From an uncultured Gemmataceae bacterium (GTDB lineage: Bacteria > Planctomycetota > Planctomycetia > Gemmatales > Gemmataceae): DNA of 64,000 nt. Numbering within the stretch: the first letter of the stretch is position 1; the number at the start of each line of letters is the position of its first letter. The stretch lies in NCBI GenBank assembly GCA_963750165.1, contig CAVVPN010000011.1, forward strand, positions 1,824,001 to 1,888,000, written 5' to 3'. Both the position numbers and the translations under genes were made by a program. Shown here piece after piece: positions 5,750 through 11,604 of the stretch. Below the pieces are notes generated by a model, which saw nothing but the letters and a program-made list of their open reading frames with translations, searched no databases and was not told the origin of the DNA.

Positions 5750-7087
5750 TCACAGCGTCTTCAAATACTCAATTACCGCCCGCCGCTGCTCCTCGGTGAA
5801 GTCGTCGCCGAAGGTGTGGCCGCCGTTGCCGCGGCCCGGCTGCGTCGTGTCGTAAGTCTTGCGGCGCTCGATCGGTGGCAGGGCGCCCGCCGGCGGCCGC
5901 TGCAACACCTGCACCTTCCAGCCGACGTTGACCTTGTCGTAATCCTCCTCGTTGGTGCGGAAGGAGCGCGTGTAAAGCTTCGGCCGCGCTTTCGAGTTGA
6001 GAACGCCGTACAGCGTCGCCACCGAGCCGTTGTGGAAATACGGCGCCGTCGCCCAGACACCGTCCAGCGGCGGCGCCTGATAGCCGGCCGTCTGCTTCAC
6101 CTTGCCGGTCAAGCCCGGCCGCTTTTCCTGGCCGAACCAGCTCCGATTGTAATAGTCCGCCCACTTGCTGCTGAAGCCGTCGAAGCGCGTGCGGTCGGTG
6201 CCGATCTCGTCGATGGGCACGACCTTGCTCGGATACGTCCAGTTTTCGCCGTAGGTGCCGTGACAGCTGCTGCAATTGCTCTTGAAGAGTTTTTCGCCCC
6301 GGGCGGCCAGTTCCTGGTTGACGGGGAAGGGGTATTTGGGGGCGCGGAGGCTGAGCAGGTAAGCCTGGATGTCTTCGAAGGTCGGCTCGGTATCGGCGAA
6401 CAGTTTGGGGCTGTTGGGCGGGCTGAGCATGAACTGCATCAGCGCCCGCACCGAGCGGGCGTGAGTGTTGCCGGTGAAATACATGGTCTTTTTCTTACGC
6501 AGGTGCCACCACGCCGGCACGTCCTCACACATCTGGTCATTGAAGCCGAGATCGACCTTTTTGAAGGTGATCTTCAGGTCCGGCTCGCGATGGGATAGCA
6601 GGAAAACCGCGAACATGCCGGCCTCGGAGGTGCCGCGGACATTGCTGAAGGTGAACGGCAGTCTGCCACTGCCGCCGCTGGCCTTGCTCAGTTCGGAGAA
6701 GACCGCCTCCACGTCCAGCGAGGCGTTGCCCAGGCCGATGTAGCTCTTGCCGAGGATGCTGCCGCCGTGGCAGATCATGCAGTCGCTGGCCAGGCCCTTG
6801 CCGAGCAGGTGCTTGCCGACACGCAGGCCCATCGGCAGACCGCCGTTCTCGTACGGCGCCGGGTGCAGACCGTAGCGTGCCCGAAACGCCGCGTCGTAGG
6901 GCTCCGGCTTCTTCTCAACGCCCCAGACCTTCCACGCCTCGTCGTAGGCTTTCAGCGACCAGATGCCCGGCGTGAACGCCTGCGTTGTCAGCGCTTTGTG
7001 GCCGCGCTCCGCCGGCGTGTCCGCTCGCACCGCCGCCAGCGCCACGCCGCCGACCAGCACCATCGCGAATACACCACTGCGCATCAT
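5750..7087 (-). CDS. Exported di-heme c-type cytochrome (cytochrome c peroxidase/RoxA-like family)
   Basis: Signal peptide; CMICH and CSSCH; 'PPLDGVWATAPYFHNGSV' and C-terminal 'GNGGHTFG...VIEYLKTL' motifs. Confidence 0.85.
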   Translation of the reverse strand: MMRSGVFAMVLVGGVALAAVRADTPAERGHKALTTQAFTPGIWSLKAYDEAWKVWGVEKKPEPYDAAFRARYGLHPAPYENGGLPMGLRVGKHLLGKGLASDCMICHGGSILGKSYIGLGNASLDVEAVFSELSKASGGSGRLPFTFSNVRGTSEAGMFAVFLLSHREPDLKITFKKVDLGFNDQMCEDVPAWWHLRKKKTMYFTGNTHARSVRALMQFMLSPPNSPKLFADTEPTFEDIQAYLLSLRAPKYPFPVNQELAARGEKLFKSNCSSCHGTYGENWTYPSKVVPIDEIGTDRTRFDGFSSKWADYYNRSWFGQEKRPGLTGKVKQTAGYQAPPLDGVWATAPYFHNGSVATLYGVLNSKARPKLYTRSFRTNEEDYDKVNVGWKVQVLQRPPAGALPPIERRKTYDTTQPGRGNGGHTFGDDFTEEQRRAVIEYLKTL

Positions 7088-7264
7088 GGCTCCATTCTCC
7101 TCGCCCTGGGTCGTCCCGGTCCCCCCTATTGTAGCGAGGCGGGCCAGGGGCTTGCGATCCCTATCCCACAAGCGTGCCTTTTGCTAAACTTTCCTGTGCG
7201 TTTTGCCGAGCCTGGCAACAACCTCTCCTCGTTCATTGCCCGCCTCCTTGTGAGAACCACCGCC

Positions 7265-8486
7265 GTGAACGTGCGCTTCCTGTATCTGGCCGTGAGTCTG
7301 GCCGGTTGTGCGCTGCTGACGCCCGGCGCCGGCCCCGCGCCCGCCGGCGATAAACCGAAAGGCCCCGTCTGGCTGACGGATTATGCGCTGGCACTGAAAG
7401 CCGCAAAAGAGAGCGGCAAACCGATCTTCGCCGTGTTCCGGTGACTGCACTGACCCGGCGCCGGGTTTGACGAGCAGGTTGCTCGTCTGGACAAGATCGA
7501 GGACGTGGCGCGGCACTTCGTGCTGCTGCAAATCGGTAGTATGCGGGGCGTCAACCTCGACGTGTTCGAGTTCGACTACGACCTGACGTGGATGGCGTTC
7601 TTCCTGAACGCCAACGAGAAGGTGTATGGCCGCTACGGTGGCCGCCCCGTGGAATCGCCGTCGAAATACTGGTCGCTGGACGGGCTGCGCAACGCCCTGG
7701 CCGCGGCGCTGGCGGCGCACCAGGCCGACCCGACGGCCAGGCCGCCGCTGCGGCCCGCGGAGCCGCGCCGCCCCGAACAGTGGCCGGCCGCTCAGCGGTT
7801 GCCGGCGAAGGCGTGCATCCACTGCCATCATGTATGGGAGTTCCGCCGCGCTGATTTGCAGGCGCGCAGCAAATGGACGACGGACGAGGTGTGGGTTTAC
7901 CCGCGACCAGAGAACGTCGGTCTGACCATTGATGTGGTGGCCGGCAACCGCGTGACGCAGGTGGCGCCGAACTCCGCCGCGGCGAAGGCGGGCGTGCTGG
8001 TCGGCGACCGCCTGCTGCGCCTGAACGACCTGCCCGTGGCCTCGTACATGGACGCGCAGTACGCCCTGCACAAGGCGCCGGCAGGGCCGTGTCCCGCTGA
8101 CCTGGCAGCGCCAGGGCAAGCAGCTGAAGGGCGAACTGACGCTGGCGGCCGGCTGGCGACGGACGGACGTGTCGTGGCGCTGGTCGCTGCGCAGCCTGGA
8201 GCCGGGACCGCAGCTGGACGGCTACGATTTGACCGCGGAGGAGAAAAAGGCGCTCGGCCTGAAGCCGAAGCAGCTGGCGTTCAAGCAGGGGGCGTTCGTG
8301 CCGCGCACCGCCCAGCAGGCGGGCATTCACATCGGCGACACCATCGTCGGCGTGGACGGCAAGCAGCCGGAGCTGACGTTTCGCCAGTTCGACGTTTACA
8401 TTCGGCTGAATTACCGCGTCGGTGATGAGGTGACGTATCAGATCATCCGCCAGGGCAAGCGCATGAATGTGAAGCTGAAATTGTGA
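7265..8486 (+). CDS. Exported thioredoxin-like/c-heme/PDZ (seleno)protein with UxxU motif; two in-frame TGA at 7442 and 7451; apparent frameshift near 8081
   Basis: Signal peptide, then WLTDYALALKAAKESGKPIFAVFR-TGA-CTG-CAC-TGA-PGAGFDEQV, in frame with ORF 7505; CIHCH heme motif; two PDZ-like domains; SECIS-like hairpin downstream. Confidence 0.82.
7454..7487 (+). promoter_or_regulatory. Putative bacterial SECIS element
   Basis: Stem-loop GACGAGC-AGGUU-GCUCGUC (7469-7487) with a G-containing apical loop, 15 nt after the second UGA; apex resembles E. coli fdhF GCAGGUCUGC. Confidence 0.72.
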
Positions 8487-8539
8487 GCGGGCCGCCACAA
8501 TCGTGGAGCCGCGGGGTTCAACAAGGCGGAGGACTGAGC

Positions 8540-9757
8540 ATGAATCGACTGATCTTCGCCACCGTGCTGACCGCCGTTGCCTTCGCTGCCCGCGCGGCCG
8601 CGCCGACCGCGCCCCAGGAGCAAAAACCCGGCGAAAAGTTGCTCGCGGTCCGGTGCCTGGCCTTTTCGCCCGGCGGAACCTGGCTCGCCGTCGGCGGCGG
8701 GTCGGACGGCACCGGCGTGTCCAAACCACGGTACGTCGGTGACGGCTTCGTCCGCGTGTACTCCGTCAGGGGCGTGCTGGGCAACGTCAAAAAAGACCTC
8801 GCCGGCGCCCTCCATCAGACGAACTTCACGAATTTTGTCGGTCTTGTCGGCTTCGTCGATGAGGGCACGGTGGCGACGGTGAGCCAGGAACGGAAGCAGA
8901 CCGTCGGCAGCGCCCCGCCCTACGACGGCGTGCGCGTCACCCGGTTCGCGGTGCCGGGCGGCAAGGAACTGAAGCGCATCCCGCTGGGCGATTGCCTGAA
9001 TGGCCCGCCGAGCATGGGTTATCACCCGTCCAGCGATCAGGTGAGCTACTGGTCGAACACCTTGACCGTGGGTGGGTCGGTGCTGGCGAAGCTGGGCGGC
9101 GGCAAGGCCGGCAAGGGCGGCGGCAAGGGGCTGCCCGCCGGGGAAGCGACCCGCGCCCCCAACTACCGGCTCGATCAGGGGCCGGGCGCCGCCCACCGCT
9201 ACTTTTCGCCGGACGGCAAGGCGCTGCTGACGTGCCCGCCGTTCCACGAACCGGGCAAGAAAGGCATCGGGCCGGCGTCGAGCGTGGTGACCGATTCGCT
9301 GCTCCGGCTGCACGAGACGACCACCGGTAAGGTGACGGCGGCGTTCGACCCCGACGGCGCGTTCGTCGCCTGCGCGGCGTTCGCGCCGGACGGCCAGCGC
9401 CTGGTGCTGGCCTGTCACAATCAGCGGGTGTACGTGTTGACCGGCGACCTCAAGCGCGTGGTCCGTGTGGTCCCGGTCGGCGCGGCCTGTGCGGCCGTGG
9501 CGGTGGCGCCGGACGGCCAGTCCTTCGCCGCGGCGACCGCCGCCGACACGATGAAGGTTTATGAGATCGGCTCCGGGAAAGTCCGTCATTCCCTGGAAGG
9601 AATCAAGGAAGGCGTCAACTGCCTGGCGTTTTCGCCGGACGGCGCCCTGCTGGCGGTCGGGTGTGGCGACGCCGGCCAGTTTGGTCGGCCGGTGGGGCCG
9701 GGCAGCGTCCGGCTGTTCGACGCGCGCACGGGAAAACTGCTCGTGACCCTGAACTGA
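8540..9757 (+). CDS. Exported WD40-repeat protein
   Basis: Signal peptide, repeated LAFSPDG / RLFD motifs, GGAGG RBS. Confidence 0.88.
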   Translation: MNRLIFATVLTAVAFAARAAAPTAPQEQKPGEKLLAVRCLAFSPGGTWLAVGGGSDGTGVSKPRYVGDGFVRVYSVRGVLGNVKKDLAGALHQTNFTNFVGLVGFVDEGTVATVSQERKQTVGSAPPYDGVRVTRFAVPGGKELKRIPLGDCLNGPPSMGYHPSSDQVSYWSNTLTVGGSVLAKLGGGKAGKGGGKGLPAGEATRAPNYRLDQGPGAAHRYFSPDGKALLTCPPFHEPGKKGIGPASSVVTDSLLRLHETTTGKVTAAFDPDGAFVACAAFAPDGQRLVLACHNQRVYVLTGDLKRVVRVVPVGAACAAVAVAPDGQSFAAATAADTMKVYEIGSGKVRHSLEGIKEGVNCLAFSPDGALLAVGCGDAGQFGRPVGPGSVRLFDARTGKLLVTLN

Positions 9758-9765
9758 GGTGGCCC

Positions 9766-10899
9766 ATGCAATCCCTGGTTCGGCGACTGACCGTGACGGT
9801 GGTGGGGCCGGCGTGCCTGGGCCTGCTGCTGGCCTGCCCGCCGGCGGCGCACGGCGACGACACGAAGTACCCCGTTGTCAGCGTGGCGTTTTCACCGAAG
9901 GGAACGTGGCTGGCCGTGGGCGGCGGCGTCAACAACGGCTCCACCGTCGGCAAGCCGAAGATCAGCGCCGGCGCCCTGCGCGTGTTTGACACCAGGAAGT
10001 ACCAGGAAAAGGCCAGTTTCCACGACCCGTTCAAGCACAGCGTCTTCCAGTGCGCGTTCGCCGACGAGGACACCGTGATCGGCGTCGCCCACCGTTTCAA
10101 CACGAAGAACTTCCTGGGCACCGGCGTGTACCGGTTCTCCGTCGCGAAGCGCGCGCCGGCCGGCGACGTGCTGAACCTGGGGAACCGACAAAGCGCGAAC
10201 GAGGTGATGGCCTTCCACTGGCCCTCCGGCCTGGCCTGCCTGTACGGTCAGAGTTTCAGCAAGAACACTTACCTGAAGAACCTCAACGCCGGCGCCACGC
10301 AGCGGGGGCGGTCGCTCTATTTCAGCAGCCCGGGCGTCCTGTGTTTTGCCCCCGACGGCAAGACCCTGTTGCTCAGCCCGCCGCGGCACAACCACCGGCC
10401 GGGAGCGGCGCAGAGCCTGCCGCTGAAGGATTGCGTCCTGCGGCTGTACGACACCGCGTCGGGCAAGCTCGCCGGCCATTACATCCCGGACGACGTCTTC
10501 GCCGAGGCGGCGGCGTTCTCGCCGGACGGCAAGCGCGTGGTCCTCTCCTGTCAGGACGACCGCCTGTACCTGCTGACGGCGGACCTGAAGCAAACGGTGG
10601 ACGTGTTCCAGGTCGGCCATTGTTCACGGTTGCTGGCGTTCAGCCCGGACGGCCGCACCATCGCCACGAAGGCCGCCGCGGAGACGGTGCAGCTGCGGAA
10701 CGCGGCCACGGGCAAGGTGGTCCGGGCCCTGGACGGCCACGAGGGCGGCGTCAACTGCTTCGCCTTTTCGCCCGACGGGGCGCTGCTCGCGGTGGGCTGC
10801 GGCCCACTGACCGGCAAGGCGGCGGAGAAGAAAACGCCGGGCCATGTCCGCGTCTGGGACGTGAAGACGGGCAAGTCCGTCGCGGTGATCGATTTTTGA
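9766..10899 (+). CDS. Exported WD40-repeat protein, tandem paralogue of 8540..9757
   Basis: Shared blocks AFSPxGTWLAVGGG, LRLxxTxxGK and GVNCxAFSPDGALLAVGCG. Confidence 0.88.
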   Translation: MQSLVRRLTVTVVGPACLGLLLACPPAAHGDDTKYPVVSVAFSPKGTWLAVGGGVNNGSTVGKPKISAGALRVFDTRKYQEKASFHDPFKHSVFQCAFADEDTVIGVAHRFNTKNFLGTGVYRFSVAKRAPAGDVLNLGNRQSANEVMAFHWPSGLACLYGQSFSKNTYLKNLNAGATQRGRSLYFSSPGVLCFAPDGKTLLLSPPRHNHRPGAAQSLPLKDCVLRLYDTASGKLAGHYIPDDVFAEAAAFSPDGKRVVLSCQDDRLYLLTADLKQTVDVFQVGHCSRLLAFSPDGRTIATKAAAETVQLRNAATGKVVRALDGHEGGVNCFAFSPDGALLAVGCGPLTGKAAEKKTPGHVRVWDVKTGKSVAVIDF

Positions 10900-10908
10900 A
10901 GCACGTCG

Positions 10909-11604
10909 ATGCAGATCCTGTTTGAAGACAACCACTGCCTGGCCGTCGCCAAGCCACCGGCGCTGTTGACGCAGGGGGTGCCGCCCGGCATTCCGACGCT
11001 GGAGGCGCTGGTCAAAGCCTACCTGAAAGAAACCTATCACAAGACCGGCAACGTCTACCTGGGCATCCCGCACCGGCTTGACCGGCCGGTCTCGGGGGTG
11101 GTGCTGTTCGCCCGCAACACCAAGGCCGCCCGCCGCCTGGCGGAGCAGTTCCAGCAGCGCCAGGTCACCAAGCTCTACTGGGCGGCGGTCGAGGGCAATG
11201 TGCAGCCGGCCGCGGACACCTGGCACGACTGGCTGCGCAAACTGCAAGAGGAGTCCCGCTCCGAACGCGCCGCGCCGGGCAGTCCGGGGGCGCGTGAAGC
11301 GGTGCTGGAATATCGCACGCTCGGGCCGTGCGCCGGCGGCACTGTGCTGGAACTGCGGCCGCAGACCGGCCGCATGCACCAGCTGCGTCTGCAAGCGGCG
11401 CTGCGCGGCTGGCCGATCCGCGGCGACCAGCTCTACGGCGGCAAACTGCCCTTCGGCCCGCCCGCGGAACTGCCGCGCGACCGCATCATCGCCTTGCATG
11501 CCCGCAGCCTCACCTTCCTGCACCCCATCCGTTACGAACCCATCACCGTCGTCGCCCCGCTGCCCGCCGCCTGGCAGGAACTCGACACTCAGCTGCCGGG
11601 CTGA
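10909..11604 (+). CDS. RluA-family RNA pseudouridine synthase
   Basis: AKPP, HRLDRPVSG, TGRMHQLR, PIRGDQLYG and ALHARSL motifs. Confidence 0.95.
   Translation: MQILFEDNHCLAVAKPPALLTQGVPPGIPTLEALVKAYLKETYHKTGNVYLGIPHRLDRPVSGVVLFARNTKAARRLAEQFQQRQVTKLYWAAVEGNVQPAADTWHDWLRKLQEESRSERAAPGSPGAREAVLEYRTLGPCAGGTVLELRPQTGRMHQLRLQAALRGWPIRGDQLYGGKLPFGPPAELPRDRIIALHARSLTFLHPIRYEPITVVAPLPAAWQELDTQLPG

Follow-up and report, generated by a model that had tools for sequence, protein, structure and literature searches.

In a gene of an uncultured Gemmataceae bacterium, UGA occurs twice in frame, at a distance of three codons, at the place where a thioredoxin-like fold normally has its CxxC motif. This raises the question of whether both codons are read as selenocysteine (Sec), and by what signal, or whether the gene is damaged, begins elsewhere, or has one of its codons read in some other way. 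We refer to the whole 64,000-nucleotide stretch of DNA that was analysed (C11:1824001-1888000) as the window, and all positions are those of the window unless a contig is named.

A hidden gene of the Trx7/PDZ family

The gene lies on the forward strand and opens in frame 2 with a GTG at 7265, the translation of which begins with a hydrophobic leader; there is an alternative in-frame GTG at 7250, and the true start is uncertain. The leader ends in the sequence L-A-G-C, which we take to be lipobox-like from the general lipobox consensus. Frame 2 then reads ...GKPIFAVFR-TGA(7442-7444)-CTG-CAC-TGA(7451-7453)-PGAGFDEQVARLDKIED and runs on in frame into the open reading frame predicted at 7505. An earlier annotation made from the letters of the window (the sequence-only reading) had described one continuous frame extending to 8486; the frame is indeed continuous through both TGAs and into the 7505 reading frame, but it does not reach 8486 because there is a shift near 8078-8081. 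Apart from the two TGAs, neither of the two frame pieces contains a stop codon. The features of the gene are collected in Table 1.

Table 1. Features of the gene and of its transcript, in window coordinates.
Feature	Position	Strand	Remarks
First reading frame (frame 2)	7265..8083	+	Signal peptide, Trx-like domain with UxxU, C-x-H-C-H, most of PDZ1
Predicted signal peptide	7265..7309	+	Ends in lipobox-like L-A-G-C, Cys codon 7307-7309; by eye
Thioredoxin-fold domain, DsbD-gamma / DsbH / AGR type	7355..7735	+	AlphaFold2 model and structural comparison
UGA-1	7442..7444	+	First Cys position of CxxC; predicted Sec; aligns with Cys, or with TGA of 7 other UxxU forms
UGA-2	7451..7453	+	Second position, the canonical Sec of the family; TGA in 36/36 Sec-form rows of alignment A2
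Small spacer hairpin GACCCG/CGGGUU	7452..7467	+	5' arm takes in G and A of UGA-2
SECIS hairpin GACGAGCA-GGU-UGCUCGUC	7469..7487	+	Within codons for F-DEQVAR-L; 15 nt past UGA-2
C-I-H-C-H motif	7814..7828	+	Invariant in family as C-x-H-C-H
PDZ domain 1	7907..8125	+	Split by frameshift; Pfam PDZ residues 215-263 and PDZ_6 229-273 of frame-2 translation
Frameshift site	8077..8081	+	Window lacks 2 bases that related short-read contigs have
Second reading frame (frame 0)	8079..8486	+	PDZ1 end, linker, PDZ2; stop TGA 8484-8486
PDZ domain 2 (Pfam PDZ_2)	8310-8483	+	30.1 bits

The suggestion that this is a hidden gene of an already named family, the Trx7/PDZ (seleno)proteins, is supported, as the NCBIfam model NF041199 matches both pieces. 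Profile positions 3-250 are matched with 282.5 bits (268 bits, marked '2 TGA', in a second search) and positions 251-390 with 116 bits, the open reading frame 8169-8483 alone giving 81.9 bits. Each single piece lies below the curated cut-off of 300 bits; the two abut on the profile, and their sum is 364-384 bits if the shift is read through. We read the gene as a member of NF041199, and Pfam and structural comparison find the architecture of that family here, namely a Thioredoxin_7-type domain with two PDZ domains behind it. In Pfam, residues 36-114 match Thioredoxin_7 (E 3.3e-5, under the gathering score), and PDZ domains are found in both frame pieces, which bears out the two PDZ-like domains proposed earlier; the continuation of PDZ1 in frame 0 was located by aligning to orthologues.

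Modelled with AlphaFold2 (pLDDT 90.0), residues 31-215 of the window protein form a thioredoxin fold. The best match of the model in VIA-align is 3f9u_B (Z 12.8, rmsd 2.6, 116 aligned), with further matches to 2lst, a Thermus thioredoxin (Z 10.9), DsbH 2ju5 (Z 9.7), AGR3 3ph9 (Z 9.6) and DsbD-gamma 1vrs_D (Z 8.7). The model of an orthologue has tandem PDZ domains matching DegP, DegQ and RseP. Foldseek with the full-length orthologue model returned tandem-PDZ proteases only, with no match to the C-x-H-C-H linker, which the fold search barely covered, and a sequence search against solved structures returned only the PDZ domains of DegP/DegQ/RseP together with weak AGR2 matches.

The CIHCH motif between the thioredoxin and PDZ domains, previously read as a heme-c motif, is present. 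Across 68 aligned rows its C, H, C and H do not vary, although C..CH had served to pick the rows, which leaves the middle His alone as independent evidence. The region is modelled with high pLDDT, and there is also a nearly invariant His at the end of the thioredoxin domain. A c-type cytochrome is defined by CxxCH with heme bound covalently, together with an axial ligand. No cytochrome family in Pfam or NCBIfam matches the frame pieces of the gene. The motif may bind heme c or, as a Cys2His2 set, a metal.

Both UGA codons occupy the redox positions of the family

The set of homologues comprises 40 rows from 151 genomes of the GTDB family to which the window belongs, of which 28 are CxxU, 7 are UxxU and 5 (4 distinct loci) are CxxC. 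It had been proposed that the two UGAs stand where a thioredoxin-like fold carries its CxxC, and that homologues would have Cys or Sec at both sites; the alignment agrees on each count, with both codons falling in Cys/Sec columns. At the second position of the NF041199 redox motif, the column of the window TGA has TGA in the 35 other Sec forms and Cys in the CxxC forms. At the first position, seven rows have UxxU in exactly the same columns, reading USHU, UIPU, UIPU, UVPU, ULHU, UHHU and UGHU, and a paralogue in the same genome reads RCIPC at the motif. The segment 5' of the UGAs is conserved at the protein level, with an invariant W and A and a common 'GKP..VFR'. The window is without a third Cys (UxxUxxC / CxxUxxC), which all but one of the 28 CxxU forms (27) possess, as do 41 of the 45 UxxU forms that the pattern scan described below found elsewhere; within this GTDB family just one of the eight UxxU forms has it.

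The codons are spanned by contigs that stem from three further samples of soil or rhizosphere, namely X2 (7367-7623), X3 (7396-7680) and X6 (7417-7567), and no change is listed at 7442-7453 in any of them. Both differences of X6 lie elsewhere, so both TGAs are kept in it; two differences of X2 and one of X3 do not appear in the printed table, so for these two the identity at 7442-7453 is very likely and not strictly proven. None of the three contigs has an indel in the 15-nt spacer that follows UGA-2. X6 comes from an RNA library, and may represent DNA carry-over. In the sequencing runs searched, the share of sampled words found was 0.13 or lower.

A covarying hairpin lies downstream of UGA-2

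The postulated downstream SECIS was located as an 8-bp covarying hairpin (Table 1). Covariation was examined in an alignment (A2) of 36 Sec-containing genes including that of the window, all found by protein profile and not by the hairpin motif. Standard pairs make up 98.3% of the 288 pair cells, compared with 26.7-57.3% when the partner is slid, and 14 cells are changed on both sides, a number reached by none of 500 shuffles. The pair 41-51, for example, is AU in 20 genes, GC in 11, GU in 3 and CG in 2. In the all-Cys homologues the hairpin is lost, with 1-5 of the 8 pairs left.

According to the accessible text of PMC13188914, the bSECIS model has a loop of 3-9 nt that has G as its first or second nucleotide, a stem of 4-16 bp, 16-37 nt from the UGA to the loop, and a minimum free energy of -7.5 kcal/mol or below. 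The window hairpin lies within all five of these bounds as given there, with a GGU loop at 7477-7479 and a perfect 8-bp stem, all Watson-Crick, that folds alone at -11.1 kcal/mol. The loop follows UGA-2 at 23 nt and UGA-1 at 32 nt (26 and 35 nt in homologues with an 18-nt spacer), and because 23 and 32 nt are both inside the 16-37 nt range, a single hairpin could serve both codons. The window copy is atypical in its spacer, which at 15 nt is one codon shorter than the 18 nt of the 35 other Sec forms and of all 45 forms found by pattern. An Rfam scan of 7200-8600 at E<=10 gave chance-level matches only, and no SECIS family.

A tight spacing between UGA and SECIS has been reported in E. coli, and this counts against the use of one hairpin for two codons 9 nt apart, as would be required here. 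The spacer itself can fold into a small hairpin (-8.4 kcal/mol) that begins within UGA-2. The same stem is found in the homologues L050 and L051 (-8.8 kcal/mol), and a weaker one in L052 (-5.8 kcal/mol), whereas the spacers of the 28 CxxU forms have a mean of -2.2 kcal/mol. We regard this hairpin as a lead only, since the rows that share it are kin.

The UxxU form has probably arisen repeatedly

In the 150 other genomes of the GTDB family, eight rows among the matches listed have two TGAs, and seven of these are UxxU; in the eighth (G109) the second TGA is elsewhere. Most of the matches listed have one TGA and several dozen have none, these being hand counts with 28 further matches outside the listing. 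A quick maximum-likelihood tree of 68 rows, from which the motif columns were left out, places the window with the UxxU genes of three genomes (G012, G092 and G089; SH-aLRT 99), with a CxxU clade as sister (97). At least 5-6 changes are required to account for UxxU on this tree, although 28 of its 36 UxxU rows were selected for UxxU and the unbiased part amounts to only four separate placements in the profile-sampled GTDB family. At position 1 a change from TGC to TGA recurs in several lineages, and is then kept.

A gene for an RluA-family pseudouridine synthase lies 3' of the gene in the same three genomes, and the window has its copy at 10909-11604, past two inserted WD40 genes; its conservation downstream speaks for orthology and not for a functional link. 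A RoxA-like di-heme cytochrome c encoded upstream and the two WD40 genes were considered as partners and set aside, as tblastn at the four orthologous loci found them not to be conserved.

To the sequence-only reading UxxU was a rare form, which is not what we find in this family. We scanned 185,579 species genomes for UGA-N6-UGA followed by a 12-21 nt gap and a hairpin core, which yielded at least 120 stretches, of which 80 were inspected. Of the 80, 45 are UxxU members of the family, as called by ...VFR-U-x-x-U..., FD[EG]QV, and C..CH 124-145 residues on, and the other 35 are chance matches. The 45 come from Planctomycetota, Candidatus Poribacteria, Verrucomicrobia, Armatimonadota and others, and the gap is 18 nt in all of them; the scan is blind to CxxU forms outside the one GTDB family. 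With the seven genomes of the GTDB family and at least 45 species genomes (a sum of 52, with some genomes in both), UxxU is common in the Trx7/PDZ family, for which it is ordinary in public genomes.

Selenocysteine machinery and the reading of the codons

Searching the genome for Sec genes, as had been suggested, found selA (567.8 bits), selB (390.2 bits together with the match next to it) and selD (286 bits), each of which exceeds its cut-off, as well as a tRNA-Sec that Rfam scores at 71.6 bits and whose acceptor stem has 8 bp and whose variable arm is long. This leaves the identity of the residue inserted at each UGA to be considered. One or neither of them might be Sec, with Cys placed at the other through near-cognate suppression or through a tRNA(ReC)-type tRNA that depends on SelB, to give CxxU, UxxC or CxxC in the product. 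In the available sections of PMC13582414, tRNA(ReC)-like genes are reported to be enriched in genomes with UXXU hydrogenases, and the authors caution that one or both UGAs may there be Cys. In the source genome a further 'tRNA-SeC(tca)' is called by ARAGORN, at C11 c[1435205-1435300], which could be thought of as a Cys-inserting tRNA, but we reject it as a tRNA(ReC) in view of its mismatched acceptor and T stems and its unpaired variable arm, and the locus has no Rfam tRNA-Sec match at E<=0.001. Three tRNA-Cys(gca) genes of 72, 73 and 80 nt are also present but are without a long variable arm, and no convincing tRNA(ReC) candidate is found in the source genome among the ARAGORN calls and the tRNA-Cys genes inspected. 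Moreover, the recurrent and retained change of TGC to TGA at position 1 would be odd if TGA were a mere synonym for Cys. We consider a Cys reading at either codon to be improbable.

A frameshift in the window and the integrity of the gene

The reading frame changes from frame 2 to frame 0 within PDZ1, and together with the two in-frame stops this could be taken to indicate a decaying pseudogene, with two nonsense codons and a shift inside 1.2 kb; the in-genome CxxC paralogue is frameshifted as well, lacking one base at AAGCGC^ACAGC, a similar GCGC context. However, a second record of contig X1 (7921-8152), which has no mismatches, has one additional C following 8077 and a second following 8080, and X2 has CA inserted after 8080. 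With two added bases the frame reads ...HKAPAQGRVPLTWQR... or ...YALHKAPAQGRVPLTWQRQGK..., which has the same length as the ...HGAPAKGAVHVAWER... of the orthologues, and in homologues from other genomes the frame is continuous. The same assembly has the essential gene rpoC in three frames, broken twice, with profile pieces 2-333, 334-1004 and 1003-1146, and rpoB intact. Because the mismatch-free X1 has the two extra C residues, rpoC is broken too and the paralogue is shifted at its own GCGC, we interpret the 2-base deficit near 8078-8081 as very probably an assembly indel error rather than damage to the gene, although the deficit at 8077-8081 could be real in the source strain. Decay also sits poorly with two TGAs that coincide with the redox columns and recur in the intact orthologues of three other genomes, with a perfect 8-bp SECIS stem, and with frame pieces free of other stops, and a pseudogene appears to us quite improbable.

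The fact that both paralogues are shifted brought a programmed frameshift into consideration. We set this aside, as the shifts are in opposite directions and at different places (profile positions 250/251 and about 265), and the continuous frames of homologues in other genomes and the broken rpoC also speak against it. The locus in this way also exposes indel errors in the source assembly.

A start 3' of the UGAs, for example at GTG 7505, giving a protein without an active-site motif of the kind that gene callers annotate, is highly improbable: the best 120 database homologues, at 316-348 aa (76-84% of the 409-aa orthologue) and called 'PDZ domain-containing protein' or 'serine protease Do', would fit it, but such truncated calls are a product of the stop-codon rule, protein-level conservation extends 5' of the UGAs, where the signal peptide required for export also lies, and a downstream start would halve the thioredoxin fold.

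A proposed single hairpin for two probable selenocysteines

The gene is real and its product very probably a selenoprotein with two Sec residues, and it is most likely, and we hold this with good confidence, that both UGAs of this NF041199 gene are read as Sec by means of the one conserved downstream hairpin. Decoding as Sec, and diselenide formation, are what we infer. SelB with Sec-tRNA(Sec) would bind the hairpin loop, and the same hairpin would serve each UGA as that codon enters the A site. The product is predicted to be an exported and possibly lipid-anchored protein, with a thioredoxin-fold domain whose U-L-H-U redox centre could form a diselenide and two PDZ domains that may hold the tails of client proteins. 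Thiol/selenol exchange with envelope proteins is the role that we predict for it.

With more modest confidence, we favour a fuller account in which one SECIS directs Sec to two UGAs 9 bases apart in an exported UxxU diselenide protein, a form that arose several times from CxxU, is widespread in Planctomycetota, Poribacteria and other phyla, and has been hidden by gene callers and left out of catalogues, the copy described here differing in its shorter spacer, its lack of a third Cys and an extra hairpin that starts in UGA-2. If both codons specify Sec, the family provides an abundant natural test of the reach of a bacterial SECIS, with codons at 23 and 32 nt from the loop, and a test case for the benefit of a diselenide in an exported thiol oxidoreductase.

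Comparison with known systems

The closest known system is the NF041199 family itself, with which the window shares the HMM family, the signal peptide, the Thioredoxin_7-type domain, the C-x-H-C-H motif and the two PDZ domains, as well as the Sec position at UGA-2 and the SECIS. It differs in having a UGA at the first Cys position too, whereas the accessible parts of the reviews give CxxU with one Sec (PMC13188914, PMC9312934), and also in the missing third Cys, as in most UxxU forms of its GTDB family, and in the spacer one codon shorter. The family appears in the 2022 review as 'PDZ domain-containing protein, pfam13899, CxxU' (PMC9312934, as far as its accessible text goes) and most likely corresponds to the CxxU protein that the GOS 2008 study called 'putative secreted serine protease MucD'. 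In a literature search we found NF041199 named only in a 2026 review, and no planctomycete diselenide selenoprotein. For this family no UxxU form is tabulated in the two reviews (PMC13188914, PMC9312934), the supplements of which may hold some examples. The two-Sec (UxxU) form of this known CxxU family is uncatalogued. The best 120 database matches of the 409-aa orthologue all begin past the UGAs and go by the names of PDZ protein, serine protease Do and RseP. Public protein sets therefore truncate Trx7/PDZ genes, these 120 homologues being without the active-site part, and the family's Sec content is underestimated in selenoproteome catalogues.

The nearest solved folds are the DsbD-gamma / DsbH / AGR domains (3f9u, 2ju5, 3ph9, 1vrs), with Z from 12.8 to 8.7 over 104-119 aligned residues. 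These have 15-18% identity and Cys-only sites, and are without C-x-H-C-H and PDZ, such that the likeness is one of fold and not a proof of function.

Diselenide formation is known from selenoprotein L. The bacterial 'Prx-like 2' proteins of the GOS study, a Prx-like thiol:disulfide oxidoreductase, are related to the animal form of that protein (PMC2398784, in its accessible text). Together with the metal-binding NF041115 proteins and the FmdB-family proteins, they are the other bacterial UxxU proteins given in the available text of PMC13188914, and they have the same two-codon separation of Sec residues at a CxxC-type site, although in families and folds that differ from that of the window.

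The Group 4 hydrogenases of a 2026 paper offer a parallel in decoding. As described in the accessible text of PMC13582414, CXXU and UXXU alternate on the hydrogenase tree while the SECIS is unchanged between them, and the authors propose that one downstream SECIS serves both UGAs of UXXU. In those cytoplasmic enzymes the Sec residues are Ni ligands (PMC13582414, same text), whereas in the window they would form the redox motif of an exported thioredoxin-fold protein.

Frameshifts and assembly quality

The frameshift in the Trx7/PDZ gene has a counterpart elsewhere in the source genome. An all-Cys paralogue of the same family, which lacks the SECIS-like hairpin, is also frameshifted, with one base missing at AAGCGC^ACAGC; in the window gene two C residues are missing in GCGCC^G^GCAGG. 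Because both sites lie in a GCGC-rich context, a systematic consensus error is suggested as the source of both frameshifts.

The essential gene rpoC occupies three frames in the source assembly and its C-terminal part is present again at C12:312568-313418, which therefore points to indel errors in this assembly, and possibly to duplication errors too. The adjoining rpoB is unbroken. In the related genome G089 (an assembly of 10 contigs), the RluA-family homologue (L179, G089:C2:907000-920000, about 7170-7726) is matched as three successive pieces with overlapping coordinates, so that this gene, too, may carry a frameshift. In the window's group, assemblies with few contigs seem prone to such faults.

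ARAGORN's second tRNA-SeC call, lying in 73% GC sequence, is probably false: it has mismatched acceptor and T stems and an unpaired variable arm, and it is absent from the Rfam tRNA-Sec matches.

Features in and outside the window (G000, source genome; C11 and C12, its contigs)
Feature	Location	Strand	Remarks
RoxA-like di-heme cytochrome c / peroxidase-type gene	window 5750-7090	-	divergent from Trx7/PDZ gene
Lipobox-like L-A-G-C	window 7292-7309		end of leader
WD40 beta-propeller gene 1	window 8540-9757	+	signal-peptide-like start
WD40 beta-propeller gene 2	window 9766-10899	+	signal-peptide-like start
RluA-family gene	window 10909-11604
Trx7/PDZ-family paralogue	G000:C11:2121230-2122431	-	outside window; motif RCIPC
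Second tRNA-SeC(tca) call	G000:C11 c[1435205-1435300]		ARAGORN
rpoC, in pieces	G000:C12:317287-321531		outside window; three reading frames

Gene neighbourhood and protein features

The RoxA-like protein matches PF21419 at 77.7 bits and scores below the NCBIfam cut-offs for RoxC, RoxB and CytoC_perox; its gene is not conserved beside Trx7/PDZ orthologues. Downstream, two tandem WD40 paralogues separate the Trx7/PDZ and RluA-family genes, and since the RluA-family gene comes immediately after the Trx7/PDZ gene in G092, G012 and G089 (genomes with the nearest UxxU orthologues), the WD40 pair looks like an insertion in the window's lineage.

The Trx7/PDZ protein may be a lipoprotein, because its leader ends in a lipobox-like motif, which is missing from the G092 orthologue. 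If translation began at the in-frame GTG at 7250, the protein would be longer by an N-terminal MRTTA.

A third Cys following the redox motif (UxxUxxC), a possible resolving Cys, is retained in 41 of 45 UxxU genes of other lineages, whereas the window gene is one of seven, among the eight UxxU genes of its GTDB family, that have lost it (loci L046-L052 versus L059-L137), suggesting that such a resolving Cys may have become dispensable in this family.
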